The notes beneath the pieces are model-generated. The model did not search any database. It worked only from the letters and a program-made list of their open reading frames with translations, and was not told the origin of the DNA. This document shows positions 3,898 to 40,231 of a stretch of DNA of 60,937 bases, piece after piece. Position 1 is the first letter of the stretch. Each line of letters opens with the position of its first letter. The position numbers and the translations under genes were made by a program. Source of the DNA: a virus (Duplodnaviria > Caudoviricetes); the IMG/VR virus record IMGVR_UViG_3300035670_000217, positions 1 through 60,937 of that record; one strand, 5' to 3'.

Positions 3898-4268
3898 TTG
3901 CCTCCCCTCCAGACCGAGAGGATCGCGCGCAGCGAGCCCGCTGGGTCTTCTTTGAATCGGCGACCGAGGTTCAGCAGGCCGAGGAACAGGTGATCCGCTT
4001 GCAATACCACCAGGCCGAGAATGACCCCCTTGGTGCCCGCGCCGAGCGTTTCGTCGGGAATATCGGAGAGGTAGAGGTTCATGAGGCCGCCGACCAGGAC
4101 GGCCACCGACATGTGCCTGACCCAATCCCGCCAGCTCGCCTTGGCCTCCGACCACATCATCTTGACGAACACGACGCCGACGATGATGACCCAGAAAGCG
4201 CCGTACTCGGCCACAAGCCTCTTGAGGTCATCCATTCCGCGCCGCTCCTTTGTTTCTGAGTCGGGCAT
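3894..4268 (-). CDS. putative holin (possible dual start at 4268 and 4235)
   Basis: Three TM segments, basic C-terminus, first gene of the lysis cassette; two Met codons each with an SD. Confidence 0.65.
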   Translation of the reverse strand: MPDSETKERRGMDDLKRLVAEYGAFWVIIVGVVFVKMMWSEAKASWRDWVRHMSVAVLVGGLMNLYLSDIPDETLGAGTKGVILGLVVLQADHLFLGLLNLGRRFKEDPAGSLRAILSVWRGGK

Positions 4269-4274
4269 AACGGC

Positions 4275-4445
4275 TCCATACTGGTGAAGCACCACCCCTG
4301 TGTATCTCCCCAGCTCTCTGGCTGGTTGAAGGGACTACCCATCAGGGTAGTCGAGGTGGGCGGAACAACCCGATTACGCGCCGCCCTCGCGCCGAGAGGA
4401 AGACCATCGCCGCACCGGATCGGGTGCCAGCCACGACGATAGCCT
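4275..4445 (-). ncRNA. structured leader or candidate ncRNA upstream of the lysis cassette
   Basis: Several adjacent hairpins, e.g. GACTACCC-TGAT-GGGTAGTC at 4333-4352, behind an extended -10-like TGGTACTAT. Confidence 0.35.
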
Positions 4446-4456
4446 GATAGTACCAC

Positions 4457-7400
4457 CTACCTGCCGCGGGTTCCTTCGTAGATCGGCAGCACGTTGTAGT
4501 TCTCCAGGAACTGTTCGTCGCGCTCCCAGCGATCCCGCGGGCGGGACTCGATCACCGCGTCGACGCCATCCAGCATCCGATTGAGGCGGCTGTTGATCAT
4601 CTGCGGCGTGATCTCGATCTCATTGCCCGGGTTGCGCTCGTTGTAGGCGTCGAGCTTGGCCCACTCGGCGTCGATCCTGGCCTCGAGCTGGGCTGCGCGC
4701 TCGGGGTTCTGGTTGCGAATCGCGTCGGCCTCGACCCGCGCCAGGCGGTTGGCGAAGCGCGACCGCACCCCGGACTGGCGGCTCATGTCGCGCCCGCTGC
4801 GGTAGAGGTAGTCCTGCACGTCGGAGACGATCGTCGGCTGGACGCCGAAGGACTTCCACCACAGCGCCGATGTCGGGATCTGGTCCGGGCGAAGCAGCAG
4901 GTCGCCTCGGGAGGTATAGGCCCCCTCGGTGCGCCAGCCCTGGGCAATGACCGGGTTCTTGATGAAGTTGGGCATCAGCTCGGCGACGGCGCCGACGCGA
5001 TCGCCGGCTTTCTCGCGCCGCCAGGCCCGCTGGGGACGGCCCACCAGGAGATCCGCCGGGATGCCCAGCGCGTCCTGCACGGAGCTGGTCCCGGGCAGGA
5101 TGTTCTGGAGGCCGATGCGGCGGCTCATGTCTATGCCCAGCGGGTAGAGCCCGCCCTTGTCAGCCACCTCGGCGATCCATTGCCGGCCGGTCTTCTCGAA
5201 GATCCACTCGCGAAGATTGTGACGCACGTCCTCGTCCTCGTCCGTGATCCACCTCCAGAGATCCTCGTAGAGCTGGCGAAGGTGATCGAGCCCGGGCGCG
5301 CCCCACACCCCGGAGAGCGCCACGATCGCCGCCACCGAGGCCGCTGCCATCATCTTGCCGTCGCGACCATGGAGGGAGGCCCAGCGATACCAGGCCTGCA
5401 GCGAGTTCAGCACGAAGGACATGAACTGGAAGATCGGCGCGCCGTGGCTGCGCAGCATCTTCGAGCGGTTGGCCTTGCCCATCATGAACTGCGACTCGTT
5501 GACGATGAACGTCGCGAAGTTCTCGGGGCTCCAGTGCTGGCCGAGCATAGTGTGCTTGGCCAGGGCATTCTTCGCGAACACCTGATTGGCCTTGGCCTGG
5601 ACGCCCTTCGCCTTGGCCATCCGCACCGCGGCGATGAAGGTTACCAGGCGGTTCATCCGCTCGACGTAGGTGTAGCTGGCGGCCACGAAGTCGATGGTGC
5701 GCTCGAGCTTGGCGGCGGCACTGCCGTCGCGGCGCCCAGAAAAGCCCATTACCTCGTGGGTGAACTGCGGCGCGAACATGCCGTCGTCCCACGCGGCCTG
5801 CACCTCGGCGCGCACGTCCGCCGGCGCATCGGCGGGGTCGAACATCTGCAGCATCATGTCCGCGGAGCCGCGCAGCCCGCCGCGCTTCCAGCCTTCGCGG
5901 GCCTGGTCGATGAAGCTGGTCATGGCCAGCGCGTCCTTGTAGGCGCGCGCCACCTCTGCCGCCGCCCTGGCCTGGCCGCCGGCCTGGGACAGGATCGGCA
6001 TGGTCATGATCGGCACCTGGGTCGCGTTGAGCGCCGCGGTGGAGACGTTGCCGGCGATGTAGAACAGGAAGCCGGTCTGGCGCAACACCGCATACTCCTC
6101 GGCAGGGTCGTTCACATAGCGCTGGTAGTCGTGGGCATACCGGCGCAGGCGCTCGCCCTTCACCCCGGAGATGGCGTCCTGCCAATCCTTCTGGTGGTGA
6201 CGGCGCGACAGGTAGCCGGCCATGCTGGCCATGTAGTCGGCGATCGATCGCTCGAAGTCGTCGGTGTAGCCGGGCACGTTGTCTGACTGGAAGAAGTGGC
6301 GACGGAAGCCGCGGCCCTGCATGGCCTGGGCAAACTCGTCGCGCACGCGGTCCCACGTCTCGTTGTCCAGGTGCGCCAGGTCGGCCAGGGAGTCCAGGTC
6401 AGCCAGGTTGATCTGGTTTTCCTCGCGGGCTCGCTGGGTGTCCAGCACCGAGATGGTGCGGTTGGCACCACCCCAGCGCTCCTTGACCTCAGCCAGGCGA
6501 CGGCGAACCTCGGGGATGGCGGCCTCGGCCTTGGCGCCGCTCTTGCTGGCCTTCCACAGCGCCAGGCGATCGCGGTAGCCGGTGATCTCCACCTTCTCGC
6601 TGTAGACGGTGCGGGTGGTCTCACGCTGCAGCGCCTTGCGCTGGCCCTGGTTGATCTGCCAGCCACCCTCCAGCTCGTTGTAGGTGGCGCCGATCTGGCC
6701 CATGAAGCCGGCCATGTCGTCGGGCACCCCGCGGGCGATCCAGCCGCCTTGCGGATTCTTGACGTACTGGATGTCGGTCAGCGTCTCGCGCACGGTGATC
6801 GCGAAGCGCCCGTAGCGGGACAGCGGGACGTAGCCGGCACGCTTGGCCTGCTCGATCTCCTCGGCCATCTGCGCCATGTTGCGCAGCCGCTCCTGCTGGG
6901 CCTGGGGCATGTCGTCGGTGATCGAGTCGAGCATAGCGCCCGCCGGATCGGTCAGGCCGGTGAACTCGGCCAGGCCCATGTCCAGCAAGGTCTGGTCACG
7001 GAACAGGTCGAGGGCATCGTCGAACATCTCGCGGAGCTGGGCGTAGGCCTCGCGCTCCACCTTGGACAGCTTGATCACCTCGCCCCGCTTGCTGAGGGCC
7101 GTGTTGAGCGGCTCCCGGCGACGCACCGGGTTGCCTGCGGCGTCGTGGACCACCACGGTCTTGAAGCCCGGGTTCTTGATGCCGGCGCGGAGTTGGAAGT
7201 CCGTGTAGCTCTCGTTGAGCAGGCGGCCCAGCTCGAGCACGCGGTTGACCCTGGCGCGGCCTTCGCCGGTCAGCTCCTTGTAGGCCCGGAACTTCGGGTA
7301 CATCTCGGCGATGATCTGGTCCCGGAACTGGTTCTGGCGCATCGCGGTGGTGAAGACCGGGGTGAACTGCTCCTCCATGCTGGCGATGGTGTAGGGGTGA

Positions 7401-10400
7401 TGGGTCCAGTAGGTGATCCGCCCGATGTCCCGGGTCACGCCGCTATCGAAGTCGGCGACGAAGGACTCAGGCTTGACCGACAGGGCGCGCTGGGCCTCGG
7501 CCACGGCGCGCCGCACCTCCTGGCGCCGCACGTCCTCGGGGACCGGGTTGCCCTCGGCGTCGACCATGCCGCCCTCGTCCGCCCGGGCGGTCACGGCCAG
7601 GGCCGGGCTGGCGGCCATCTCGCCGTTGCGCAGGGCGGCAGCGGCCAGGGCGCGGAGCTGTGCCGGGCTCACCTGGCCGAGTTGGATGCCGAAGGTGCGC
7701 ATCGCCCACGCCTTCACGCGGCCCACCATGTCGTTGACCCACGCCTTGAGGGTGCGCGGCGCAGCCTCGTAGGCCTCGATGGCGTAGGCGCCGAACTCCT
7801 CGATGCGGCGCTGCTCGCCCATGGCGTCGCCGGCGGCCTCGGCGGCCTCGATGCGCTGGCGGGCGGCGGCGAAGAAGTCACCGGCGGCCCCGGGGCTGCG
7901 GCTGTACTGGCGGTACAGGGCGGCCAGGCGGCCCTGCAGCTCGTTCCAGGCCTTGGTGCCGATCAGCGGGCGCGCGCCGGCATGGAAGGCCTCGTGCAGC
8001 AGGGCCGGCAGGATCGTCTCTGGCGTCAGGTTGCGGGCGACCAGGGTGATGGTGCCGTCTGCATCCACGTAGGCCTGGGTGCCGCGCGGCAGGTTGGCCG
8101 GAACGTGGTTGAGCACCTGGATCTTGCCGCTGGCGATCATGGCGTCGGCGGCCTCGCCCAGCTCTGACTGCATCAGGCGCTGGACCACCTCGGCATCACC
8201 CATCCGCGGCGTCCGCTCACGGTTGGCGGCCACCGATCTGGCGGTCGCGGAACGCATCTGCGCGCGGGCCGCTGCCGGCTCCTGGATCGCGCCGGTTACC
8301 TCCAACTGCCCTTCAACCAGCTCGCCGCGCAGCACGACCGGGCGGTTGTCGCGGTCGCGCACCGCCTCCAGGGCGATGAAGCCATCCTGGTTGGAGACCG
8401 CGCCGGTGGTGGTGTAGGCCTCGCCGTCGACCTCGTAGGTGCGCACGCCGGTCGATTCGCGGTTCTCGAAGTTGCCGAGCTTGCGATTGCGCTCGGCAGC
8501 GATATAGCGGTTCTCCCGCTCACCCCGGGCAGTGTCGGCGTGGTACTCGGCGAAGGCCACCTGGATCGCGTACCACTGCTGAAGCTCGGCCAGCTCGTTG
8601 ACGCGACTCTCGTCGACGCTCTGCTCGGCGACCTCGGCCTCACGCGGCTGGCGGCGCTCCAGCTCGGCCAGGTACTGGCGCTGGCTGTCGAGAGCGAGGG
8701 CCAGCTCGCGGGTCAGGTGGGCGGGCTCCAGGGCGGCACGGAAGCTGCTGGAATCCTCGGGCTTGGCCGCGGTGTGGCCGACGCTGAAATGACGTTCGCC
8801 GGTGGCCTCCAGGTAGAGGTTGGTGTTGATCACGTCCTTGCCGTAGCCAGGCGCGCGCTCCAGGGTCAGGTTGATGGTGCCGAGCTTCACGCTGACCCGC
8901 TTGGACATGTCCTTGGGTCCGGCGGCCACGTCGGCTAGGGCCTTCTGCCACAGCCGGGCGTAGGCCGACTTCTCCACCACCTCCTTGCTGAAGATATGCG
9001 GGCGGCTCGGGCGGGCAGGCAGTGGCGGCAGCTTGGTGTCACCGCGGGCAACGGCCTTCTCGCGCTTGGCCTCGGCCAGTGGCAGCTTGGCCTGGTAGTC
9101 GGCATAGGCCTCCTCGAAGGCGGCCATCGCCTCGGCCATGGCGGCGTCATGCTCGGCCACGCTGGCGGTCTCGCCGGCAAAGGAGAGATCGCCCAGCGCC
9201 TGGGGCTCCAGGCCAGCAATGGTCGCCTCGAGCTTGGCCTTGCGCTCGGGGTAGTCGCGCAGGAAGCGCTTGGCGTTATCGACGGAGATGGCGCGGCCAC
9301 TGGTCTCGGCGCGCGCCTCGGTGAGATCCCGCTCGGCCTCGAGCTTGAGGCGGAACACCGGGTTGCCGGTGGACGAGGCCATGAACTCGGCATACTGGTC
9401 GGCATCGCCTTCCGCCTCGCTCATGCTGTCGAGGCCGCCGATGCGGAACTGCTCGATGGCGCCAGCCTTGCGCTCCAGGATCTGCCACATCACGGTGTCG
9501 CTGGTGCCGTTGGTCGAGTAGGCGTGGATCTCCACCTCGAAGCCGTCGGGGTCGCGCTCGTAGAGCTTGTTGCCCTGGCGAATGATGCGGCCCTCGCGCT
9601 GCTCCACGTCAGAGGGGCGCCACGGGGCGTCCAGGTGGTGCAGGGCGACCAGGCGCTCCTGGACGTTGGTGCCGGCCCCCATCTTCGGGGTAGAGCCGAT
9701 CAGCACGCGCACCGCGCCGGCGTTGACCCGGGCGAACAGGCGCTGCTTCTTCTCGGGGGTGTTGTAGTCGTGGATGAACGCGATCTCCCCGGCGGGGATG
9801 CCCATCTCGATCAGCACTTCGCGCAGGTCGTCGTAGACCGAGAAGCCGGTGTCGGCGGTCTGCATCTCGACCTCGAACTCCTGGGCCTGGGCGAAGAACG
9901 CCTCGATCTTCTCCAGCTTGTCGCCGGCCAGGGCCGGGTCGGCCATCACGTCCTCGGAGAGCGCCACGGTCTGCTTCCACTGCTCCATGAACGGCAGGTC
10001 GCGCATGGCCTTCATGCGGGCGCGCGCCACCTTGTCGTTGAACAGCAGAGTCAGGGCGTCGCGGACGATCTTGCGCGCGTTCTTGCCGGCCTGCTTGGCC
10101 GGGGTGGACAGGTCGCTGAACACGAGCTGGGTGCCGCGGTCGTCGCTCCAGCGGTCGTAGATGTCCTTGATGCGCCGAGCCGAGCGCATCACCTTGCCGT
10201 TGTCGTCGCGCGCCGCCTGGGGGTCCACGGTGCGGATGTCGAGGGACATCTTGCGCGCATCGGAGAGCACCCACAGCGGGTTGTCGATCTTGGCGTACTC
10301 GGGATCTTGCTTGTTGGCCTCGATTCCCTGCATCCGAGCCACGAGGTAGTCCATGAACTCGGCCTGCTGCGGGGTGATCGCCGAGGTATCGAGCTGGCGG

Positions 10401-13400
10401 CCTCCGGCAGCCACCTTGGGCACCGGGAACTCGGTGCGCTCGTTGGCGCCCGTCTCGGCGTTGCTCTGGGCCTTCTCCTCGGCGTAGAGCCGCTTCAGGT
10501 CGTCCATGGTGATCACGTCGGCGAACTGGCGGTAGAGCTGCGACAGCGACTCCAGGTTCGACAGGCCAGCCAGCACGCGCCGCGGCTTGATCTTCTGGGT
10601 GGCGGTGTACTCCATCCGCGTCTCGGTGACGGCGTAGGCGCCGGCCCAAGCGTCGTAGTGATCCAGACCGCGCGCCTGCAGCTCAGGCGTGGCCAGGTAG
10701 CTCATGACGGTATACAGCTCGACCAGGGAGTTGGAGACCGGGGTACCGGTGGCGAAGGCCACGCCGCCCTGGCGCTCCTGGATGCCGCGGACCTTCACAT
10801 AGAGGTCGAAGGCGCGCTGCGAGCCCTTGGGGTCGTTCATACCGACCACGCGCTCGGAGCTGGTGGCGTACTCGAGGTTCTTGAACTCGTGCGCCTCGTC
10901 GACGGCCAGGTAATCGACGCCCATATCCTCCAGGGTGATGCCGATGTCATCCCGGGAGCGCTCGGCCAGCTTCTTCAGGCGGTCGTCGTAGCTGTCCAGC
11001 TTGTTCTGCATCTGGCGCATGGTGCGCTTGCTCTCGCCGGCCAGGCGGGCGTCCTCCATGGCCTGCTCGAGGAGCTTCTTGCGCTCCCGGATCACGTTCT
11101 GGGTATCCGATTCGCCGGGCTCGATGAAGCCGAACGAGGAGTGGCCCACGATCACCGCGTCGTAGTCGCCGGTGGCGATCCTGGCGAACAGCCGGCGGCG
11201 GTTCTTCTTGGTGAAGTCGTCCGGGGTGGCCGCCAGGATGTTGGCGCCGGGGTAGAGCTGGTAGAAGTCGCTGGCCCACTGCACCACGAGATGGTTGGGC
11301 ACCACGACCATCGGCTTGCGGGACAGGCCGAGGCGCTTGCGCTCCATGATCCCGGTGATCAGGGTAAAGGTTTTGCCGGCGCCGACGACATGATCGGTCA
11401 GCACGGCCTGGCTCTGGATCATCCGCCAGGCGGCGTTCTTCTGGTGGCGGCGCAGCTTGACCGCCGGGCTCTGGCCCACGGTCTTGAGGTACTTCTCGCC
11501 GTCCCACGTCCGCTCCCGGTGGGTGTTCATCTTGCGGTTGAAGGCGTCGACCACCTGGGCCTGGCGCTGGGCGTCGGAGTAGGCCCACTCGCCGAACACC
11601 TTGGCCATCCGCTCGGCCAGGGCCGTGACCCGGGTGCTGGCGGCCTTATCGACGTAGCGCTCGTCGCCCCTGCCGCGCCACACGGTCAGGCTCTTGCCCG
11701 AGGTGGCGGCGTTGAACAGGGTAATGATGTCCGCGTCGGGATCGTTGAACTGCACCCCGAGGTCGGTCAGCTCGCCGGTGACGCCACGCCCCTTGATCAT
11801 GCCCACGGTGTCGATGATGTTGACGGTGGCGCCGCGCACGCCCAGCGCCTCAAGGAAGCCCTCGAAGATATCGGTGGGCATCCAGGTGCCGCGCATGGAG
11901 GGGGTGATGCGCTCGGCGGTCAGCGGGGCAGGCTGCACCGCCTCCAGGGCGCGAGCATTGGCCTCCAGGCCCAGCGCCAGGGCCTCGTCGAGCTTGCGCT
12001 TCACGTTGCCCGAGAGGTACGCCTCGGCGTGCTCGTAGGCCTCGATGGCAGGGTCGTAGAAGATCGCCGGGGCGTCGCCAGTGGAGAGATCCTCGATCAG
12101 CGCCTTGATCGGCTGGCCGGTGAGGTCGGACATGTAGGCCAGGTCCAGCTTGCCGCGCTCGGAGAGCGAGATGGTCAGGGCGTCGCGAGGCGAGTCGGCG
12201 CTGGTGATCTCCCGGTAGGGGTAGGCCACGCGCTGACTCATGATCGCCGCCTTCTTGGCCGACGACTTCTTCGGCTTCACGCCCATCACCTTGGCTTCGG
12301 CAGGCTTGATGGCCGGCTGGTAACCGGACTCCAGGCCCACCTCAACGCCGATATCGCCAGCCAGCAGCTTGATGTTGTCCGGGTCGGAGATCAGGCCATG
12401 ACTGGCCACGAAGGCGTCGTAAGCCTGGTTCAGCTCCTGGCGCAGGGTGTCCATAGCCGGATCGTCCGACTTCTCGGCGCGGATCAGGGCCAGGGTCCGG
12501 TTGCGCAGGTCCATCAGCTTGCGCAGGGTGTCGTAGCCCTTGCGGCCAAGCTGCTTGCGGCCCAGCGTGGCCTCCATGGCGGCCAGGCCTTCGTCGAAGC
12601 GCCAGGCGAAGGTGGCGGGCTCGCTGATCGCCTCGCGGATGTCGAGGATCGCCTGCTCGGCCTTGGTCGGGCTGGCCTTGGGCTCGCCCTTGGCGTCCAG
12701 GGCCAGCTCGGCGACCTCCAGGAAGGCGGCCACCTGGGCGTCCGTCGGCATGGCGCCCTCGCTGTCGCGCAGCGCCTTGGCGGCATTGATCGCCTGTTCC
12801 CACTGGGCCGCCTGCTCGCGCCAGTAACTCTCCGGGGTGATCTCCTCGATCACCGCGTTGCCGCTGGGGTCGTCAAGGTCGCGGCGCAGCAGCCTACCCT
12901 CGGGGTCGAGCATCATGCCGCCCACGGGGAGGTCGCTCACGTTGAGCATCGCCGCCCCCACGTCCTTGTCGACGTTGGTCTCGGCCATGATGCCCTCGAG
13001 GTCGGCCCAGTCCTCGGCCAGGATGCGATCGACCTCGGCACCGATGTCGCGCCCGTCGCTCTCGACGGTGTACTCCTGGCCGTCGCCGCGGTACATGGAG
13101 CCGCCCATGCTGCTCTTGCCGAGGATGTGCTGGGGGTTCTCCTGGAAGTAGCGGTTGACCCGCATCTTCACACCATCGACCTCGATCTCGCCGTTCACGT
13201 CGAGCCAGGCGGCGTTGGCGTCGCCCACCTCGTCGGCGCGCAGCTTCTGCAGGAACACGATGTCGGTGGTGACCGAGGTGCCGGCGTTCTGCTCGAAGGC
13301 GTCATTGGGCAGCCGGATCGCACCGAGGAAGCGGAAGTGCTTGGCCAGGTAGTCGCGGGCCTCGGGGTTGGCGGTATCCAGGAAGCGATGGGTCACCACC

Positions 13401-16400
13401 ATCTGCATCACGCCGCCGGGCGCCAGGTGGTCGCCGGCCTTGCCGATGATGTAGTTGTGGATGCGCATCCCGTCGAGATGGCCGTGCTGCTTGCTCTTGT
13501 CGCGAATGCGCAGCTCGCCGAACGGCGGGTTGCCGATGGCCAGCCGGAACACGCCGTTGGCGAACGGGGCGTCCTGGAAGCCGGTGGCGGCCAGCACGTT
13601 GGCCTCGGGGTACAGCAGGCTCGCAATGGCGCCGGTCACGCTGTCCAGCTCGGCGGCGTGCCACTCGGTGGCGGCGGCGAGATCCGCCGGCTGCAGGCCG
13701 AGGAAGTTGCCGGTGCCGACGGTGGGCTCTAGGGCGCGGCCTCCGGTGAAGCCGAAGTGCCGGGCGGCGCGCCACATGGCGTCGACCACCCCCTTGGCGG
13801 TGTAGTGGGCATCCCGGGTGGAGCGGGCCGCGGCCTCGTACTCCTCGGGCGTCAGCAGGGCGCGCAGCTCGGCCTGGGCGCGGCCATACATGTCGGTGGC
13901 GCCGCGCTTCTTCACGTCGAACACCGACTTGAGCCCACCCCAGCCGACGTAGCGGGCCAGCACAGCCTGCTCTGCCGGGGTCGCGAAGCGTCCCTCGCTG
14001 ACGATCTCCTTCATCAGGCGGATCGCCTCGAGGTTGCCGCTGATCTTCTGGCCGGTGGTGCCCTCGCCGAGGCCCAGCTCGTCGGTGATGACGAAGTTGC
14101 CGGGGTTCTCGCCCTCTAGCTGGTGGGGCCGGTCCTCAGTGCGTCCATGGGGTTTATTGGCGGGCGATTTTCCGGCTCGGGGGTCAGAACGTCGTCCTCC
14201 GGCCCCGGGGGCGGCACCAGGGCCAGCGCCCTCGCCTCGGTCCACGCCGTCGGCTCGTCCAGACCGATCGCTATCAGGCTGTCCATCTCCGACCGTGTTA
14301 TCCGGGCGAGCGCCATCGACTGGCGCTGGATCTGCTCCGGGTTCAGCTTGCGCACCTGAGTGCGGTGCTGAGTCCACCAGTGATTCAGTATCTGGGTCTG
14401 TATCTGCTCCAGGGTCACGGGGCATCTCCTCTCGAGGAATCGGCGGCGCCACACCGGGGTCGCGACGATCAATCAGGTTGCTTTGCAGGTGGTCGGCCAG
14501 CGGGCCGATCTCGGCGTCGTTGATCGCCACCTGAGTATCGTCCTTGAGGAACTTCTTCGCACCCTTGACCTTGGCGCGCACCACCGCGACGAACAGCTCG
14601 CGGGGCATCCCTTCGGGACGGTGGAGGATCGTCTCGTAGGCGGTCACCGGCTCGTCGCCGAAGGCGCGGCTCTCGTAGCTGCGCGTCTCGATCTCCAGGT
14701 TGTAAGGGGCGCGGCGCTCCAGGATGAAGCCCTTGCCCTCCGGGACCACCACATAGACGCCCAGCAGGTCGTTGTCCTTGATGAACTTCTCGGCGACCCG
14801 CTCGGTTCGCCAGCGCTGCCGGCCCTCGGGGCGCAGCACCGAGTCGGTCGGGCGAGGCGCCGGCTGGTCACCGCGCTCGGGGCGAGGCTGTGACGGGGCA
14901 TCGGCGCGCTGGAGGTTCTGCTGCTGCACGTTGAGCTTGCGGTGCAGGAACTCGGCGCCCATCTCGATCTGCTCGGTGTACTCGTCGTCGGCCTGGGGGT
15001 CGGCGAGCTGCTCCTCCTTGAGGCGGCGACCCTCCAGGACATCCTGCTCGGTCAGCTCTGGCTTCCTGGCCAGCTCGCGCAGCTTGGCGATGCGTGCCGC
15101 CTGGCGGGCCTTGGGGCTGCCGCCCTCGGTGGCGGTGCTGGCGCCGGAAGTCATTCGCTCGAGATCCTGGCGCAGCTCGGCCAGTAGGGTCTCGATGTCG
15201 CGGATCTTCGACTCCAGGCGGGCATCGGTGACCATACCCTGCTCGTCGCGGATGGCAGCCAGCTCGGCCCAGTCCTCGCGCAGTTCTGTCATGCGCTCGC
15301 GGATGCCCTCGGGCGTGCTGGTGTCGTAGGTGCGGCTCTCGCCGACGCGGCGACCTTGCTGGGGCGGCGTCTCCGCAGGCGCGTCAGCTTCGGGCGCAGC
15401 CTCGGCGCTGGCGATGACCTCCTCGCTGACCACCGCGGAGGTGGGCGCGTCCTCCTCGGCAGCCGGCTCTGCCAGCATGGCCTCATGCTCGCGCTTGGCG
15501 GCGTCCACCGGGGTCATGCCTTCGGTGTCCAGGCCAGGGTAGTTGCGCGCACCCTCGTAGAAGGACAGCAGGTAGGGCTTAACCTCAGTCCCAAGGTCGT
15601 CGATCATCGCCTTGGCGTAGTCGGAGAAGCGGCGCACACCGGACTCGATGTAAGCGCCGGCGATGGTCATGCCGTCGACCAGCATCTCGGGGTCCAGGCC
15701 GGTGTTGATCTGGCCCAGCTTGGCCTTGAGGCGGGCGCGGGCGGCGGCCACCTTGTCTTCGGTGAAGATGGTGTTGCCGGCGAACTGGCCGACAGGCTCC
15801 TGTCGATCAATCGGCGATTCTTCGACACGTTCGGCGGACGTGTCCTCGGCGTCGACAGGTTGCCCCTTCACCTGAATGGGGTCTCCTGGCGACCAGCCTG
15901 CCGGCGCCTCCTGGGCGGCCATGTTGCGAAGTTGGCGCAGGCGTCTCTCGGCAGCCCGCAATTTGGCCACGTTCTCCTCGGTCTCGGGTTCTCGGCGCAG
16001 GCGCATGACGCGGCGCTTCTGTGTCGCGATCTTGGCGCTCACCGCATCCTGGTACTGGGGCGTGAAGTCCGCAGGCGTCGCGACCGGCGCGCTGCGCTCA
16101 ATGGCCCAGCCGCCGTAGATCTGCACCACGCGACCCTCGATGCGCCGGTTGCGCATGGCGTTCTGCGCCTTCTCGAAGCTCGCGAACGGGGTGTTGCGGG
16201 TGGTCAGGATCAGGTCGCGGTCAGGCGCGGCCGCCGGCGTCACCTCGGCAGTGCCCGGGGTGGCATCGGTGTCCTGGGCGACCACCTCACGGTTGTCGCG
16301 GGAGGGGGTGGGCTCCTCGATGGGCTGGCCCTGTTGCTCGCCGCGCAGCCGGTCCACACGGATGAAAGAACGGCCATCCTTACGGAAGGCGTAGGGGTCG

Positions 16401-19400
16401 ATCTCCTTGGCCTCGGCCAGCGGGATGTCGCGCAGGACGCCGGTCAGCTCCCTGCCCTTGCGGGTGGTGTGCCGAACCAGGGGCTCGCCGGTCGGCGCCG
16501 TCTCCTCCTGCTCGGACTGCTCCATGAAGGCCTCGCCGTCGACCATACGGGCCTCACGCTCGGCCTGGGCGCGCGCCAGCAGCTCGGCCATGTCGCTGCC
16601 GCGGGCCAGGGTTTCGCCGGTGGCGGCGTCCACCGCGGCGAACGAGACGGCATCACCGAACCCGCTCTCACGGAACTCGATGGCGGCATCCGGGGTGCGC
16701 CACAGACCAGGGGAGGAAGGGTCGCGCTGGAAGTCCGCCGGGGCGTCGGCGAGCGGAGCGCCGGCGCGGGCCTGGCGCTGAGTGTCGGACAGCTCGGCAT
16801 GACGAACCCGCGCAGCCTCCAGGAATCTCGAGCGCTCCGGGTTGATCTGCAGCGCGTTGTCGGCGGTCGCCTGATCGGAGAACTCGGCGGCGATCAGGTC
16901 TTCCACGTCCTGGGTGGTCTCGGCCTGCTTCAGGAAGTCGATGCGCTGCTGGACCCGCTGTACATAGTCCTCGGGCAGTCCTACCCCTTCGGCGGCGACA
17001 TCAGCAGGCTGATCCAGACCAGGGCTCTCACCGTCACCAGTAGCATCTGTCGCTTCACCAGCCTCCACCACCGCCATAGGAGGAAGACCGATAGCGCCAG
17101 GATCGCCAGTAGATCCAGGAGTCGATTCACGAGGAGCCTCCATCTCGGCCTGGGCGTCCATCTCTCGCCCGGCATCGGCCACCTGCCCACCGTCGCGCAC
17201 CACGGTCACGCCGTCGGCGTCGGTGTAGGTGTACATACTGCCGTCGTCGCCCAGCACGCGGATGCGGAATCCGCCCTGGCCGTCTTCGGTATAGCTCTCC
17301 ACGGTCCCGGCAATGTCGCCGGTGCGCGTCGCCACGCTGACCCGCTCGCCATGCACCGCTTCGACCATAGCCTCGGTCTGCGCCTCGCGCATGACGCCCT
17401 CGAGCGGGCCGGACGGGGCGCCCTCGGCGCTCTCGGTCAGGTGGCCGTCAAGGATGGCGTCGGGAGTGCGGGCCGCCACCACCTCCTTGAGGGTGGTCGG
17501 GTAGTTCCAGGGGTCCAGCGCACGGGCCGCCATGATGTCGGGCGTGACCAACGATCCGCCGGACGCCTCCAGGGGCGTCTGGTTGCGATTGCGGAGGGCG
17601 CCGGGCACCCCGCGGGCACCGCTGGCCAGGTTGATGCCGATCGCGATCAGCGCCGAGGAGGAGCCGCCGATCACCGCCTGGTACAGGGTGTCGTCCCACA
17701 GACCCTTCTCCTCGTTGTAGGACATCTCCACGAAGTTCTGGATCACCGCACCGGCGCCCTCGGCGACGAACTCGGCGCCGAATGACTCCAGGATGTGGCG
17801 GATCTGGCCGACGGCCTTGCCGCGCACGTTGGACGGAATGCGCTGCAGGAGCACCGCAACCGGCGCCACCTGCACGATGCCGCCCGGGATACCGGCCATG
17901 GCCACGCGCAGCGCCTCGTCCTCACTGAGGCCGTAGTCGATGGCCCGCTGGTAAGCCTCGGCAGCGCCGGCAGGGCCGGCCAGGGCGGACGCGCCGGCGA
18001 TCGAGGCGGCGGCCTGGATGGCGGCGGTCGAACCCTTGGTCATCAGGGTGGTCAGCCAGCCCGGGCCGAGGTAGACCAGCATGGAGCCCACGCCGGCGGC
18101 GATGTCGGTGGCCACCCCCTGGTACTCCGGGTCGGCCTGCCAGGACTCGGCGATCTCGCTGAGGTCGGCACCCATGCCGCGCAGCCATTCCGCTACCCGG
18201 TTGGGTTCGCGCTCGGCCCACGCCACCACGGCGTCATGGAACTCGCTCTCGCGCTTAACCATGTCGCGCGCCCACGGCTGGACGGCGCGCAGGATCTCCT
18301 CGTCGGAGCGCCCCGCTTGCTCCATCATCCGCAGCGTCTCGGCCATCCGCAACCGGGTGGTGTCGAGCCCCTTGGCGGCGTCGAGCATCTGGCGGTCGGC
18401 CTCGACGTTCTCGAGCTGCTGGAGGATCAGGCCGGAGCCCTCGATGGTGCCGGCGACCGCCGAGGCAGCGCCCGAGCCCCCGGACTTGCTCAGGTTCTCG
18501 ACCCAGCCCAGCAGGGTGCGCTCGGAGGACGGGCGCGGCGCGGCGCCGGTGTAGCCGTCGATGAAGTCGGGCTTGTCGAAGTCGCGGCCAAACTGCTGAG
18601 CGACCTCCTGGGGGTTCTCCCGGGCGCGACGGGCCTCGCCGGCGGCGTCAACACCGAGGATGCCAGATGGGCGCGGTTCACGGGGCGCACGCGGCTCCCC
18701 CTCACCGGCGCGGCGACTCAGCACCTCGCGCTCGCTGGCCGGGGTCTGCAGGAAGTCCTTGGCGGCACCGAGACCCTGGCGCACGAGATCCAGCACGGTG
18801 CCGGTGCCCATGGTGTTGGGGTCGTTGTACTTGGGAGCGGCGCCCGACAGGGCATCCACCTCGGGCGGGGCGTTCGGGTCGCGGGCCAGCTCGCGGATCT
18901 GCTCGAGACTCAGCTCGTCGGCGTCACCCTCGATGCGGGACCGGGCTTCCGGCCGCTCGCTGCGCCGGCGCTCGGGAGCCTGCTGCACGCGCTCCCACTC
19001 GGCGCGCAGGTGCTCCTGGGCCTGGTTGAAGGCGTCGGCGCGCCGCTGGTAGTCGTCACGCTGGCGCTCGAACTCGGCCAGGCGCTCGTTGAGGGAGCCG
19101 AGGTCGCGGTTGAAGGCCTCCACCTCCTCGGGGGTGGAGATCGACGCGCGGCGCTCCTCGAACTGGGCGACCAGGGTCTCGATCTCGCCGGCCTGAGCCT
19201 CCAGGGCGGTACGCGCCTCCTCACTGGGGCGGGCGAACTCGTCGAGGCGCTTCATCTCGGCCTCGATGGAGCCCAGCAGCTCGGTGCGCTCCTGGGTGGT
19301 GAGATCCTCGAACTCGCCGGCGGTGAACGGCTGCTCGCCCTCGGCGGCCACCTCGGCCTCGGCCATGGCCTCCTGGGGTGTGCGCAGACCCTCGGCCTGG

Positions 19401-19951
19401 TTGTAGATCTCTCGGGCCTTGCCGGTGACCACCTCGGCGTACTCGCGGGTCTTCGGCCCCCACATCGAACGGTTATCCCCTCCATGGTGGGCCATGATGG
19501 CCTCCTCCATGGAGTAGCCCTTGTCCAGTCGCTCGCGAAGCTGGCGGGCGGCGGCATCGACGGACTGGGCCGGGTCGAGCGGATTGATCCCTACGCGACG
19601 GGCGGTGTCGTCGATGTACTGCATCATGCCCTTGGCGCGCCCCCACTGGGTCGGCTGGCCGATCGCGTCAGGGCGGTAGCTCGACTCCTGCTGGGCCAGG
19701 GCCATCAGCACGTTGGCCGGCACGCCGTAGCGCGCCGATGCCTCCAGGAACAGCGGAGTGAATTGCTCGGGCGGCATCAGGTTGCCGCTGGGCGCCTGTC
19801 GGGGCGACAGGCTGGAGAGGTCAGGGCCGCCGGCCTGGCGACGGGCACCCCCCACCTGGGAGAGGTCAGGAAGCTCGAGGGCGCGACCGCGAATCTCGTC
19901 GGTCACCGAATCCAGCGGGTTGCGGAAAAAGGGGTTGTTCGCCACGAGCAT
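4457..19951 (-). CDS. giant virion-ejected polyvalent protein, DarB-like (lytic transglycosylase, DNA methyltransferase, SNF2-type helicase, zincin, PLxRFG domain)
   Basis: 5164-aa ORF; SLT motifs QQESS/AKGMMQ; MTase EPTVGTGNF and GNPPF (~13530); DHVVGAGKT (~11385), DEAH (~10900), GTNVQ/PWRP; HEAFH (~7990); YVPLSRYG (~6825). Confidence 0.92.
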   Translation of the reverse strand: MLVANNPFFRNPLDSVTDEIRGRALELPDLSQVGGARRQAGGPDLSSLSPRQAPSGNLMPPEQFTPLFLEASARYGVPANVLMALAQQESSYRPDAIGQPTQWGRAKGMMQYIDDTARRVGINPLDPAQSVDAAARQLRERLDKGYSMEEAIMAHHGGDNRSMWGPKTREYAEVVTGKAREIYNQAEGLRTPQEAMAEAEVAAEGEQPFTAGEFEDLTTQERTELLGSIEAEMKRLDEFARPSEEARTALEAQAGEIETLVAQFEERRASISTPEEVEAFNRDLGSLNERLAEFERQRDDYQRRADAFNQAQEHLRAEWERVQQAPERRRSERPEARSRIEGDADELSLEQIRELARDPNAPPEVDALSGAAPKYNDPNTMGTGTVLDLVRQGLGAAKDFLQTPASEREVLSRRAGEGEPRAPREPRPSGILGVDAAGEARRARENPQEVAQQFGRDFDKPDFIDGYTGAAPRPSSERTLLGWVENLSKSGGSGAASAVAGTIEGSGLILQQLENVEADRQMLDAAKGLDTTRLRMAETLRMMEQAGRSDEEILRAVQPWARDMVKRESEFHDAVVAWAEREPNRVAEWLRGMGADLSEIAESWQADPEYQGVATDIAAGVGSMLVYLGPGWLTTLMTKGSTAAIQAAASIAGASALAGPAGAAEAYQRAIDYGLSEDEALRVAMAGIPGGIVQVAPVAVLLQRIPSNVRGKAVGQIRHILESFGAEFVAEGAGAVIQNFVEMSYNEEKGLWDDTLYQAVIGGSSSALIAIGINLASGARGVPGALRNRNQTPLEASGGSLVTPDIMAARALDPWNYPTTLKEVVAARTPDAILDGHLTESAEGAPSGPLEGVMREAQTEAMVEAVHGERVSVATRTGDIAGTVESYTEDGQGGFRIRVLGDDGSMYTYTDADGVTVVRDGGQVADAGREMDAQAEMEAPRESTPGSTGDPGAIGLPPMAVVEAGEATDATGDGESPGLDQPADVAAEGVGLPEDYVQRVQQRIDFLKQAETTQDVEDLIAAEFSDQATADNALQINPERSRFLEAARVRHAELSDTQRQARAGAPLADAPADFQRDPSSPGLWRTPDAAIEFRESGFGDAVSFAAVDAATGETLARGSDMAELLARAQAEREARMVDGEAFMEQSEQEETAPTGEPLVRHTTRKGRELTGVLRDIPLAEAKEIDPYAFRKDGRSFIRVDRLRGEQQGQPIEEPTPSRDNREVVAQDTDATPGTAEVTPAAAPDRDLILTTRNTPFASFEKAQNAMRNRRIEGRVVQIYGGWAIERSAPVATPADFTPQYQDAVSAKIATQKRRVMRLRREPETEENVAKLRAAERRLRQLRNMAAQEAPAGWSPGDPIQVKGQPVDAEDTSAERVEESPIDRQEPVGQFAGNTIFTEDKVAAARARLKAKLGQINTGLDPEMLVDGMTIAGAYIESGVRRFSDYAKAMIDDLGTEVKPYLLSFYEGARNYPGLDTEGMTPVDAAKREHEAMLAEPAAEEDAPTSAVVSEEVIASAEAAPEADAPAETPPQQGRRVGESRTYDTSTPEGIRERMTELREDWAELAAIRDEQGMVTDARLESKIRDIETLLAELRQDLERMTSGASTATEGGSPKARQAARIAKLRELARKPELTEQDVLEGRRLKEEQLADPQADDEYTEQIEMGAEFLHRKLNVQQQNLQRADAPSQPRPERGDQPAPRPTDSVLRPEGRQRWRTERVAEKFIKDNDLLGVYVVVPEGKGFILERRAPYNLEIETRSYESRAFGDEPVTAYETILHRPEGMPRELFVAVVRAKVKGAKKFLKDDTQVAINDAEIGPLADHLQSNLIDRRDPGVAPPIPREEMPRDPGADTDPDTESLVDSAPHSGAQAEPGADPAPVDGARPDNTVGDGQPDSDRSGRADGVDRGEGAGPGAAPGAGGRRSDPRAGKSPANKPHGRTEDRPHQLEGENPGNFVITDELGLGEGTTGQKISGNLEAIRLMKEIVSEGRFATPAEQAVLARYVGWGGLKSVFDVKKRGATDMYGRAQAELRALLTPEEYEAAARSTRDAHYTAKGVVDAMWRAARHFGFTGGRALEPTVGTGNFLGLQPADLAAATEWHAAELDSVTGAIASLLYPEANVLAATGFQDAPFANGVFRLAIGNPPFGELRIRDKSKQHGHLDGMRIHNYIIGKAGDHLAPGGVMQMVVTHRFLDTANPEARDYLAKHFRFLGAIRLPNDAFEQNAGTSVTTDIVFLQKLRADEVGDANAAWLDVNGEIEVDGVKMRVNRYFQENPQHILGKSSMGGSMYRGDGQEYTVESDGRDIGAEVDRILAEDWADLEGIMAETNVDKDVGAAMLNVSDLPVGGMMLDPEGRLLRRDLDDPSGNAVIEEITPESYWREQAAQWEQAINAAKALRDSEGAMPTDAQVAAFLEVAELALDAKGEPKASPTKAEQAILDIREAISEPATFAWRFDEGLAAMEATLGRKQLGRKGYDTLRKLMDLRNRTLALIRAEKSDDPAMDTLRQELNQAYDAFVASHGLISDPDNIKLLAGDIGVEVGLESGYQPAIKPAEAKVMGVKPKKSSAKKAAIMSQRVAYPYREITSADSPRDALTISLSERGKLDLAYMSDLTGQPIKALIEDLSTGDAPAIFYDPAIEAYEHAEAYLSGNVKRKLDEALALGLEANARALEAVQPAPLTAERITPSMRGTWMPTDIFEGFLEALGVRGATVNIIDTVGMIKGRGVTGELTDLGVQFNDPDADIITLFNAATSGKSLTVWRGRGDERYVDKAASTRVTALAERMAKVFGEWAYSDAQRQAQVVDAFNRKMNTHRERTWDGEKYLKTVGQSPAVKLRRHQKNAAWRMIQSQAVLTDHVVGAGKTFTLITGIMERKRLGLSRKPMVVVPNHLVVQWASDFYQLYPGANILAATPDDFTKKNRRRLFARIATGDYDAVIVGHSSFGFIEPGESDTQNVIRERKKLLEQAMEDARLAGESKRTMRQMQNKLDSYDDRLKKLAERSRDDIGITLEDMGVDYLAVDEAHEFKNLEYATSSERVVGMNDPKGSQRAFDLYVKVRGIQERQGGVAFATGTPVSNSLVELYTVMSYLATPELQARGLDHYDAWAGAYAVTETRMEYTATQKIKPRRVLAGLSNLESLSQLYRQFADVITMDDLKRLYAEEKAQSNAETGANERTEFPVPKVAAGGRQLDTSAITPQQAEFMDYLVARMQGIEANKQDPEYAKIDNPLWVLSDARKMSLDIRTVDPQAARDDNGKVMRSARRIKDIYDRWSDDRGTQLVFSDLSTPAKQAGKNARKIVRDALTLLFNDKVARARMKAMRDLPFMEQWKQTVALSEDVMADPALAGDKLEKIEAFFAQAQEFEVEMQTADTGFSVYDDLREVLIEMGIPAGEIAFIHDYNTPEKKQRLFARVNAGAVRVLIGSTPKMGAGTNVQERLVALHHLDAPWRPSDVEQREGRIIRQGNKLYERDPDGFEVEIHAYSTNGTSDTVMWQILERKAGAIEQFRIGGLDSMSEAEGDADQYAEFMASSTGNPVFRLKLEAERDLTEARAETSGRAISVDNAKRFLRDYPERKAKLEATIAGLEPQALGDLSFAGETASVAEHDAAMAEAMAAFEEAYADYQAKLPLAEAKREKAVARGDTKLPPLPARPSRPHIFSKEVVEKSAYARLWQKALADVAAGPKDMSKRVSVKLGTINLTLERAPGYGKDVINTNLYLEATGERHFSVGHTAAKPEDSSSFRAALEPAHLTRELALALDSQRQYLAELERRQPREAEVAEQSVDESRVNELAELQQWYAIQVAFAEYHADTARGERENRYIAAERNRKLGNFENRESTGVRTYEVDGEAYTTTGAVSNQDGFIALEAVRDRDNRPVVLRGELVEGQLEVTGAIQEPAAARAQMRSATARSVAANRERTPRMGDAEVVQRLMQSELGEAADAMIASGKIQVLNHVPANLPRGTQAYVDADGTITLVARNLTPETILPALLHEAFHAGARPLIGTKAWNELQGRLAALYRQYSRSPGAAGDFFAAARQRIEAAEAAGDAMGEQRRIEEFGAYAIEAYEAAPRTLKAWVNDMVGRVKAWAMRTFGIQLGQVSPAQLRALAAAALRNGEMAASPALAVTARADEGGMVDAEGNPVPEDVRRQEVRRAVAEAQRALSVKPESFVADFDSGVTRDIGRITYWTHHPYTIASMEEQFTPVFTTAMRQNQFRDQIIAEMYPKFRAYKELTGEGRARVNRVLELGRLLNESYTDFQLRAGIKNPGFKTVVVHDAAGNPVRRREPLNTALSKRGEVIKLSKVEREAYAQLREMFDDALDLFRDQTLLDMGLAEFTGLTDPAGAMLDSITDDMPQAQQERLRNMAQMAEEIEQAKRAGYVPLSRYGRFAITVRETLTDIQYVKNPQGGWIARGVPDDMAGFMGQIGATYNELEGGWQINQGQRKALQRETTRTVYSEKVEITGYRDRLALWKASKSGAKAEAAIPEVRRRLAEVKERWGGANRTISVLDTQRAREENQINLADLDSLADLAHLDNETWDRVRDEFAQAMQGRGFRRHFFQSDNVPGYTDDFERSIADYMASMAGYLSRRHHQKDWQDAISGVKGERLRRYAHDYQRYVNDPAEEYAVLRQTGFLFYIAGNVSTAALNATQVPIMTMPILSQAGGQARAAAEVARAYKDALAMTSFIDQAREGWKRGGLRGSADMMLQMFDPADAPADVRAEVQAAWDDGMFAPQFTHEVMGFSGRRDGSAAAKLERTIDFVAASYTYVERMNRLVTFIAAVRMAKAKGVQAKANQVFAKNALAKHTMLGQHWSPENFATFIVNESQFMMGKANRSKMLRSHGAPIFQFMSFVLNSLQAWYRWASLHGRDGKMMAAASVAAIVALSGVWGAPGLDHLRQLYEDLWRWITDEDEDVRHNLREWIFEKTGRQWIAEVADKGGLYPLGIDMSRRIGLQNILPGTSSVQDALGIPADLLVGRPQRAWRREKAGDRVGAVAELMPNFIKNPVIAQGWRTEGAYTSRGDLLLRPDQIPTSALWWKSFGVQPTIVSDVQDYLYRSGRDMSRQSGVRSRFANRLARVEADAIRNQNPERAAQLEARIDAEWAKLDAYNERNPGNEIEITPQMINSRLNRMLDGVDAVIESRPRDRWERDEQFLENYNVLPIYEGTRGR
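14116..14418 (-). CDS. nested (overprinted) 100-aa protein inside the DarB-like gene
   Basis: GAGGAG RBS 7 nt before GTG; helical protein-like sequence; host frame loses GC3 bias over this interval. Confidence 0.7.
   Translation of the reverse strand: MTLEQIQTQILNHWWTQHRTQVRKLNPEQIQRQSMALARITRSEMDSLIAIGLDEPTAWTEARALALVPPPGPEDDVLTPEPENRPPINPMDALRTGPTS
16981..17130 (-). CDS. nested (overprinted) 49-aa membrane peptide inside the DarB-like gene
   Basis: GGAGG 6 nt before GTG; VNRLLDLLAILALSVFLLWRWWRLVKRQMLLVTVRALVWISLLMSPPKG; host-frame third positions become T-rich. Confidence 0.6.
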   Translation of the reverse strand: MNRLLDLLAILALSVFLLWRWWRLVKRQMLLVTVRALVWISLLMSPPKG

Positions 19952-39130: not shown

Positions 39131-39394
39131 TCACGTTTTCGTTGATGCGCTCGTCGTGCGGTCGTCAATTATGACGGCGGATTCGGCGCTCTCCCGACAA
39201 TTGTGCGCGATCGGAGTCGCAGACGCCAGGATCTCGGCCACGGCCTCCGACCAGCGCTCACGGGAGTTGCACTCGCCTCCGACGGTGACGGCCACGCGGT
39301 AGCAGGCTGGGCAGAAGGTGCGCTCAGACCTCCCGTGGGCCGCCCTGACGGTCATCGGCTTGGCCTGGCACCAGGGGCAGGGAGGAACGCTCAT
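39131..39394 (-). CDS. small zinc-ribbon protein (Lar-like)
   Basis: CPWC...CPAC motif; coupled to terS. Confidence 0.5.
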   Translation of the reverse strand: MSVPPCPWCQAKPMTVRAAHGRSERTFCPACYRVAVTVGGECNSRERWSEAVAEILASATPIAHNCRESAESAVIIDDRTTSASTKT

Positions 39395-40170
39395 TCGCGC
39401 TCCTGGGGCTGCTCCTGGGGCGTCAGGGCCTGCTCGTCTCGCCTGCCGCCTGTCGCGATCGCCTTCACCAGGGCCGCCAGCGGGTCGTCCTCCTTGATGC
39501 CGAGGTTCAACTTGGCGTCCAGGATGCCGAGATGCTTGGCGACGTTCTCCAGTGCCTTGGCCTGATCCTGGGTCTTGACCTCCATACCCTCCTTGGTGGT
39601 CTTGATTCCGGCGTACAGGGCGCGCGCCTGGGGGCTAAGCCGGCGGGTGTCGGCCACAAACACGCCGGCCTCGCCCTCTCCGTCGCACTTCGGGCAGTCG
39701 GGATGCGGGTCGGCGCTGCGGAGATAGCCGTAACCTCCATCGTTGCTGGGCGCCTTGCGCGGCGTCTCGGCGGCCTCGGACTGGCGACAGGCTTCCTGCC
39801 ACTCCTCCTCGTCAATCCACTGATAGCGATGATCCTCGCCGTAGCAGTAGCGGCACGCGCGGCGCCGATGTTGCACCAGCTCGTTAACGTCGGCTGTGGC
39901 GATCTCCCACCAGCGTCTCACGACAGTTTCGGCGCTGATCTCCAGCTTCCGCGCTATCTCGGCCTGCCGCGCCCGAATATAGGCCTCAACCTTCGGATTC
40001 CTGACGAGTTCGCAGCCTGATCGGTATTGATCCTTCGCCTTTCCGCCAGCGCGCCGGTAAGCAGGTCCGGCCTTGCCATCGACCAGGTATTCGTCAGCGA
40101 CGCGGCGCTGCATGTCTGTCAGTTTGGCGCCAAGGGCTTCGGCTGTTTGAGAGGGATCTACGTCAGGCAT
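39391..40170 (-). CDS. terS: terminase small subunit
   Basis: LT.MQRR...EYL.D, CRYCYG, PHPDCPKCDGEG, ALYAGIK.TK.G, KALE...KHLG motifs. Confidence 0.85.
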   Translation of the reverse strand: MPDVDPSQTAEALGAKLTDMQRRVADEYLVDGKAGPAYRRAGGKAKDQYRSGCELVRNPKVEAYIRARQAEIARKLEISAETVVRRWWEIATADVNELVQHRRRACRYCYGEDHRYQWIDEEEWQEACRQSEAAETPRKAPSNDGGYGYLRSADPHPDCPKCDGEGEAGVFVADTRRLSPQARALYAGIKTTKEGMEVKTQDQAKALENVAKHLGILDAKLNLGIKEDDPLAALVKAIATGGRRDEQALTPQEQPQERE

Positions 40171-40231
40171 GATCCGCTCCTCCTTCAAGAGTGTGGGTTG
40201 CGGACAGTATCGCGGGGCGGGGCTTGAAAGG

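Follow-up and report, generated by a model that had tools for sequence, protein, structure and literature searches.

A probable TnpV-like small gene in the +1 frame of the pre-methylase linker of a giant DarB-like phage protein

Phages are known to carry complete small genes inside larger ones on the same strand, as in lambda, where Rz1 has its own start in the +1 frame inside Rz and both products are made. The DarB-like methylase-helicases, which rank among the largest proteins of phages and plasmids and among the most widespread, are thought to shield incoming DNA from restriction. In phage P1, where the accessory proteins of DarB are Ulx, Hdf, DarA, DdrA and DdrB, small proteins of this kind are needed for its packaging. 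Here we describe a 303-nt open reading frame (ORF) that lies in the +1 frame of a giant DarB-like gene and probably encodes a small protein of its own, in the virus record IMGVR_UViG_3300035670_000217 (Duplodnaviria; Caudoviricetes), a DNA of 60,937 bp and 66% G+C, rated complete by CheckV, whose whole length is referred to as the window. As a class, embedded spanin genes are mentioned in PMC9144972, and for overprinted viral genes codon usage serves to tell the ancestral frame from the novel one (PMC3744397, PMC3494269). Polyvalent proteins have been described by Iyer et al. (2017; PMC5512222), according to whom the methylase is nearly always fused to a C-terminal SF2 helicase and an N-terminal LPD36 domain.

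The host of the small ORF is a single ORF of 5164 aa (4457..19951, minus strand) that joins a lytic transglycosylase (SLT), a methylase and a helicase and corresponds to a DarB-like polyvalent virion protein of the kind described in PMC5512222. Pfam searches placed the SLT domain at its N-terminal end (aa 67-162), followed by a weak, sub-threshold match to an Eco57I-like N6-adenine methylase (E 3.7e-4) and by SNF2-rel_dom (just under its cut-off), ResIII and Helicase_C; the succession of methylase and SNF2/SF2 helicase in one polypeptide is the dyad that it has in common with P1 DarB. The variable N-terminal modules are joined to this dyad by a linker rich in G, D, P, R and A (14119..14434, minus strand; host residues ~1840-1945), which is presumably disordered, as the earlier note on this DNA had read it. 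The conserved methylase module starts immediately after the linker (12902..14116, minus strand; host aa 1946-2350), and in tblastn it shares 42-46% identity with the DarB-like proteins of phages and plasmids. The tblastn query matched 2,065 plasmid records and 125 phage records; the methylase region matched methylase-helicase genes on 2,058 plasmid records, and the phage relatives, with genomes of ~60 kb and giant proteins named 'DarB-like antirestriction' or 'PLxRFG', include Itty13, LASTA, SopranoGao, PEp14, Stean, Atu_ph08 and VvAW1.

Over this linker lies the nested ORF (14116..14418, minus strand), which has 100 codons, starts with GTG at 14418-14416, ends with TAG at 14118-14116 and begins with the translation (M)TLEQIQTQILNHWWTQHRTQVRKLNPEQIQRQSMALARITRSEMDSLIAIGLDEPTAWTEARALALVPPP. 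The earlier note had proposed a hidden gene on the strength of this ORF and of a ribosome-binding site ahead of it, and both are present: on the minus strand GAGGAG (14431-14426) is followed by the seven nucleotides ATGCCCC and then by the GTG. The Shine-Dalgarno (SD) sequence GAGAGGAG (14426..14433, minus strand) contains the heptamer GAGAGGA at 14433-14427, 8 nt ahead of the start. This heptamer occurs 17 times in the window, and 12 of these copies stand 6-9 nt ahead of a start codon that opens an ORF of at least 73 aa; within the giant ORF, the sense strand has no copy other than that ahead of the nested GTG. The word itself is not enriched in the window (17 copies against 11.6 +/- 3.1 expected), and what is informative is solely where it stands relative to starts. 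Relative to the host, the nested frame is +1, so that nested codon position 3 is host position 1, and it is closed by stops at both ends. The claim that it stops precisely at the methylase-proximal domain was borne out as well: the first host codons past the nested stop read LEGENPGNF, and similarity to other DarB-like methylase-helicases begins at host residues ~1928-1952, at or just before that stop. No promoter-like or terminator-like sites were found within 13800-15200. A small ORF wholly contained in a larger one of the same strand, in another frame and with its own SD and start, is the arrangement of Rz1; the two cases differ in that Rz1 is a lipoprotein that binds Rz, whereas the putative small protein of the window would be cytoplasmic and helical, and the host product over the overlap is the linker of a 5164-aa protein.

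The overlap is marked by a switch of codon signature. Over the whole giant ORF the G+C contents of codon positions 1, 2 and 3 are 0.70/0.46/0.90, which is the norm of this genome, while between ~14460 and 14130 the host frame shows 0.80-0.90/0.57-0.78/0.38-0.60 and the same DNA read in the nested frame returns to the usual pattern with 0.66/0.48/0.85. The host frame thus loses its G or C third positions where the nested frame keeps them, as had been noticed before. Consecutive 120-nt windows with host third-position G+C (GC3) below 0.72 form only two long runs in the 15.5-kb ORF, the stretch of the nested ORF and 17221-16922, and there is an additional isolated window of this kind at 15901-15782.

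The nested protein belongs to a family of proteins that mostly exist in free form. Searched against 5.8 billion proteins, the peptide retrieved nine cluster representatives, all of 80-117 aa, eight of which are stand-alone proteins and the ninth (P0003) a 95%-identical phage-type copy on a short contig; three of the representatives are from Halomonas by source name (H. salipaludis, H. urumqiensis and Halomonas sp.). An alignment of 11 sequences (A4, the Halomonas type) has a conserved core of 75 residues (residues 1-75) with 23 invariant columns, over which the window protein is 44-67% identical to the eight stand-alone proteins, and in it the GTG of the window is aligned with the ATG of the stand-alone genes. 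Past the core, the tail of the nested protein is rich in proline and acidic residues. An AlphaFold model of the 100-aa protein has three helices (3-17, 27-50 and 55-66) at a mean pLDDT of 71, and a Foldseek search of this model against the PDB gave nothing below E 0.9; the small proteins are mostly acidic, with pI values of 4.5-6.8. With the window peptide as query, neither tblastn against the phage and plasmid collections nor a search among proteins of 176-2000 aa returned a match, and scans of viral contigs with the peptide and both flanks yielded no relative.

Stand-alone genes with their own SD could be read in the DNA of three loci. The first lies in an island of H. salipaludis (10377-15576 of locus L002), where it is preceded by an SD of its own and an AT-rich spacer and is convergent with a small-terminase gene sharing 86% DNA identity with its counterpart in the window (39430-40122). 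The island also holds an integrase and tandem 53-55-nt iterons, because of which it resembles a small satellite of this type of phage; the corresponding region of the window is 39391-40188 (minus strand). A search for att repeats around the island gave none that was convincing, only the tandem iterons, and no tRNA was found. The second gene (L005/L011) is set among AbiEi, ParE and a low-GC membrane-protein gene, and the third (L006) is on a contig of 1.15 kb. No neighbour shared by the stand-alone copies was detected, the upstream membrane-protein genes of L002 and L011 being unlike each other (E >1).

The arrangement seen in the window recurs in distant elements. Among 12 distant DarB-like loci, which were picked from the top tblastn hits and are not a random sample, 11 carry a complete +1 ORF of 101-117 aa overlapping the pre-methylase linker, namely those of the phages Itty13, USP_25, LASTA, VvAW1 and Stean, a Brucella replicon and plasmids of Xanthomonas, P. 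syringae, P. aeruginosa, B. vietnamiensis and Xylella; Atu_ph08, the remaining locus, has just the C-terminal portion of one, at the border of the stretch examined. Homologous loci with stops in the nested frame or without a ribosome-binding site had been named as the outcome that would speak against a gene, and in all 11 an SD-like motif (AGGAG, GAGG, GGAG or AAGGA, some weaker by one or two matching bases) ends ~6-11 nt before an ATG. Equivalent linkers are present in all five phages, and the Pseudomonas phages Itty13 and USP_25 display the same disordered linker, the same collapse of GC3 and a protein-like open +1 frame before the methylase. The methylases of the elements that share this arrangement are only 35-45% identical.

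A second sample was spread more evenly, with six loci taken from a 30-row list spaced down the ranking of plasmid hits, all with alignments that reach the N-terminus of the methylase. Four of the six have a +1 ORF. Clear plasmid-type homologues were found in Citrobacter (E 1e-19) and in Campylobacter coli, a DNA of 29% G+C (E 3.4e-8), and at the equivalent position Alteromonas and Listeria innocua have +1 ORFs, of 113 and 121 codons respectively, that have no significant match to the A4-A6 profiles. The other two, alphaproteobacterial plasmid genes, are taken up below. As to annotation, the prediction that standard gene callers would overlook the small gene is supported in that PGAP treats it inconsistently: in some records it omits the ORF, and in others it calls it and truncates the host gene. 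In the Xanthomonas, P. syringae and P. aeruginosa plasmids (L012-L014) the small ORF has been entered as a hypothetical protein, with the big gene made to start further downstream; in these plasmids the open host frame nevertheless reaches back to a conserved N-terminus, MAKKRQPADDLNQLSFDFEF or MPRRRQPHDQAQMGFDFAF, ~45 codons before the small ORF begins, and other records annotate the host gene from that upstream start.

In codon alignments of the embedded copies, nested position 3 is the most variable and nested position 2 the least, with variabilities at nested positions 1/2/3 of 0.40/0.33/0.48 in five phage-type copies and of 0.28/0.19/0.50 in three plasmid-type copies. As proteins, the copies resemble each other more closely when read in the nested frame than when read in the host frame, with mean pairwise identities of 0.47 vs 0.33 for the phage type and of 0.67 vs 0.39 for the plasmid type. 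The host frame has no stop in any of 10 copies, for which the chance probabilities range from 0.32 to <0.0002 (summed log10 -17.5), each nested protein having been re-encoded with local codon usage and the lineages not being fully independent; the third frame contains 3-9 stops in every copy. Across the relatives both frames thus appear to be under selection. This is the pattern expected of dual coding in which the sequence of the small protein matters and the big protein would need only an uninterrupted flexible tether. The selection on the nested frame proposed earlier is supported by the codon signature, the stand-alone homologues and the substitution patterns of the distant embedded copies.

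The direction of overprinting is probably the reverse of that implied when the small gene was called overprinted. Since the small ORF has the codon usage typical of the genome and free-standing versions of it exist, we infer that it is probably the older frame, over which the linker of the giant protein was laid. As in the overprinted overlaps of viruses, the frame with genome-like usage would be the one that encodes a folded protein and the frame with atypical usage the one that encodes a disordered segment; unlike those cases, the presumed novel frame is not a new gene but a linker that fuses the modules of a giant polyvalent protein.

Profile searches connect the types of small ORF to each other with different strengths. 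The A4 profile, run against 444 six-frame ORFs, matched only the embedded ORF of Itty13 at an E-value below the inclusion threshold (7e-5), and in the opposite direction the profile of the phage-type ORFs (A5), run against the 564 six-frame ORFs of the window, had the nested ORF as its sole match (E 2.7e-4; the next best at 2.8). By BLASTP the window ORF aligns end to end with a phage-type ORF, at 29.6% identity over 71 collinear residues (E 5e-5). The embedded ORF of Listeria innocua reaches the gathering score of the Pfam family TnpV (PF14198) with the full profile, at 27.4 bits against 27, and the ORFs of Stean (20.9 bits), LASTA (18.0) and Itty13 (15.8) give sub-threshold matches to it, the phage-type ORFs covering profile positions 22-83. 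The plasmid-type ORFs touch DUF7422 (E 0.04-0.06). The window ORF itself had no match to TnpV at E up to 0.1, and so none at the gathering score of 27 bits. TnpV proteins are likewise small helical proteins of mobile elements, of ~100-120 aa, and the window ORF, with 100 aa, three predicted helices and a place on a phage record, would fit that description. An Atlas search with the homologue P0006 had a best feature score of 0.78 and included, as a lead only, one structure with a TM of 0.61 in a cluster that is 26% TnpV. Because the link is transitive, by way of the phage-type ORFs, and the evidence for it modest, we call the window ORF TnpV-like and not a member of the TnpV family. To our knowledge, TnpV has no established function.

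Taking these observations together, we consider it likely, at about 80%, that the 303-nt ORF, lying in the +1 frame of the pre-methylase linker of a DarB-like gene, is genuine and encodes a small three-helix protein, mostly acidic and a distant relative of TnpV. What exceeds chance is the switch of codon signature, the SD and the homologues. Ribosomes that set out from the giant ORF's own start would pass through the overlap in frame 0 and make the flexible G/D/P/R linker, and other ribosomes would start at the internal GAGAGGAG-GTG, make the 100-aa protein and stop at the TAG where the methylase module begins.

The boundary of this unit is also visible in the mosaic structure of the giant ORF, which is mosaic between the SLT and methylase modules. 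A sister phage contig (L003; 61 kb, 97% identical to the window) has both frames open, and similarity to it and to contigs of other runs starts exactly at CGAGAGGAG (mosaic junction 14434..14435, minus strand), the relatives carrying different modules upstream of 14434. In contigs from other public runs the break falls on this same base, with at least two further upstream partners. The block that starts with the SD of the small gene is therefore a recombination unit. Near this junction the window has an in-frame module of 717 nt of its own (14435-15151, minus strand) that is missing from the sister phage, which in turn has GNAT-like and HExxH-like modules (~4300-5990 of L003) that are missing from the window. 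The public-run contigs match with shares of 0.2-0.34 across runs from varied habitats, which we do not read as an indication of habitat.

Several results weigh against a genuine gene. The window ORF belongs to no family of Pfam (to E 0.1), PHROGs or NCBIfam; an hhalign comparison of the window family with the other embedded ORFs was weak (probability 18%, P 0.0013), as was the link between the phage-type and plasmid-type profiles (E 0.054), and the choice of the 12 distant loci from top hits counts here as well. The only signal from an RNA library is one 348-nt contig over 14096-14434, which, as an assembled contig only, proves neither transcription nor its ends or start. An open host frame over the nested ORF of the window is unremarkable when taken alone (P 0.21-0.23 by synonymous resampling with the codon usage of the phage). 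Within the nested ORF the window and the sister phage differ at eight positions, and the changes, three synonymous and five non-synonymous in the nested frame against four and five in the host frame (a count that takes in an extra synonymous change just downstream, at 14114), discriminate neither frame.

The last two of these points are what would be expected if a Halomonas-type gene had been captured in a frame that chanced to be open, the DNA now serving as linker only and the ORF being intact by recency. At the DNA level the window copy shares 84% identity with that of L002, which implies fairly recent shared ancestry, and the stand-alone L006 copy is also open in the host-like frame. We regard such a fossil passenger as unlikely, given that the arrangement is kept with SD and start where the methylases have diverged to 35-45% identity and that the nested frame is there the better conserved of the two; in the window the SD and start have been retained, and it is at the SD that the similarity of the mosaic relatives begins.

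A ribosomal +1 shift near 14430, ending at the TAG at 14116, would yield a truncated N-terminal protein with a helical domain and no free 100-aa protein. The two open frames and the position of the nested stop at a module boundary would suit it; we noticed no obvious slippery run on reading the sequence, in which no dedicated search for one was made, all embedded copies that could be read completely carry an SD-like motif and a start (ATG or GTG) that lines up with those of the stand-alone homologues, and in the plasmids the host ORF starts merely ~45 codons upstream, all of which makes a frameshift very improbable. An equally slight chance attaches to a conserved DNA or RNA element as a partial explanation of the conservation. 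It is suggested by a near-invariant stretch of 33 nt (14257..14289, minus strand; codons EMDSLIAIGLD) that contains CGATCG and is nucleotide-invariant nearly throughout, synonymous sites included, in the five DNA copies compared, whose proteins are otherwise 53-96% identical. This stretch covers only 11 of the 75 core codons, and outside it the copies vary most at the third positions of the nested frame, as a protein-coding frame would. Finally, two compensating assembly or sequencing frameshifts, or a fused gene pair, with the true protein reading the nested frame in line, could account for the unusual codon signature and for nothing else; we discarded both a misassembly and the division of the giant ORF into two genes, since the same sequence, open in both frames, is found in the independent sister phage and in contigs of several further runs, stops close the nested frame on either side and the double-frame layout recurs in finished phage and plasmid records.

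Returning to the embedded gene, its constant position suggests that its product would be co-expressed with the methylase-helicase dyad and act on or beside it. Since the pairing is kept in distant phages and plasmids, cooperation with the dyad is the most likely role, and the small protein might work as a chaperone or adaptor for packaging or transfer, or as a regulator; this proposal, drawn from linkage, stands in our estimate at even odds or slightly less. Four observations argue against an obligate partnership. In the spread sample, the alphaproteobacterial plasmid genes of R. rhizogenes and Roseomonas are short at the N-terminus and lack the ORF; P1 darB is without both the pre-methylase linker and a nested ORF, its alternative frames being full of stops; the stand-alone copies adjoin unrelated genes, those of Halomonas away from any DarB-like gene; and in H. 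urumqiensis a DarB-like match was not found with the query used. In view of the free copies in Halomonas islands, one of them beside a helper-like small terminase, and of this result in H. urumqiensis, the protein may also act alone or against incoming elements.

The earlier note had likened the presumed partner to P1 Ulx, a parallel that does not hold. Ulx is no model for the nested protein because its gene lies downstream of darB and it is unrelated in sequence: it scores negative bits against the A4 and A5 profiles and has no match to A6. In the P1 record itself, Ulx is labelled only as 'Ulx-like anti-restriction'.

A more far-reaching interpretation, which we offer tentatively and hold to be rather less probable than the partnership itself, would unite these elements. 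The pre-methylase linker would be an old dual-coding module of many phages and conjugative or mobilizable plasmids of Gammaproteobacteria, Epsilonproteobacteria and Bacillota, in which a TnpV-like gene is ancestral and is read by the big protein in the -1 frame as a tether; the small protein would be an obligate and so far undescribed antirestriction cofactor, either an acidic chaperone or adaptor or a brake, and Halomonas satellites or islands would carry free copies to exploit or counter it.

Embedded +1 phage genes and the TnpV family are already known, and some of the plasmid copies have been deposited as hypothetical proteins. The case of the window is apparently an instance of a conserved dual-coding module that has gone undescribed: the main text of PMC5512222 contains the words 'overlapping', 'frameshift' and 'TnpV' 0 times each, and full-text literature searches turned up neither an account of an ORF that overlaps DarB-like genes nor a paper in which TnpV overlaps a methylase-helicase gene. 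If the linker does hold a conserved second gene, annotations of these loci are systematically wrong, with the small gene missing or the big gene truncated, and genetic studies of them have unknowingly changed two genes together. A candidate cofactor of the antirestriction dyad would become directly testable, and the locus would be a clear bacterial and phage case in which the same DNA has served, across long evolutionary distances, for an ordered protein and for a disordered linker, the large gene seemingly having been overprinted on the small one.

Some further observations concern the same proteins and loci. One Halomonas genome with a free copy of the small gene also holds a DarB-like methylase gene (contig L023, from G121; positions 1-120). 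In the +1 frame, the linker of this methylase gene closes with a tail resembling those of the phage-type embedded ORFs, only this tail being visible where the contig is cut. The C-termini of P0004 and P0007 (DFSKNRIFT.EMAEQARARLK..LGQ) resemble FAGNTIFTEDKVAAARARLKAKLGQ of the giant ORF (aa ~1385-1410) at 14 of 25 residues (E 0.6), a likeness that may reflect a shared module start or chance.

In the giant ORF there is a second +1 candidate (16981-17130, minus strand), in which GGAGG is followed after 6 nt by the GTG of a hydrophobic ORF of 49 aa with two membrane-helix-like segments and the stop TAG at 16983-16981. Host GC3 drops there to 0.35-0.5 and the host frame reads as an acidic G/D/P/E linker; the candidate is open in the sister phage too, with a 3-nt indel, and hand-counted changes favour neither frame. 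In the GenBank record of Itty13 (L009) long antisense coding sequences are annotated across the region of the giant ORF. USP_25 (L010) has another short GC3-switch segment inside its giant ORF (6553-6673) and a further one upstream of the annotated start, over the neighbouring gene (4153-4573).

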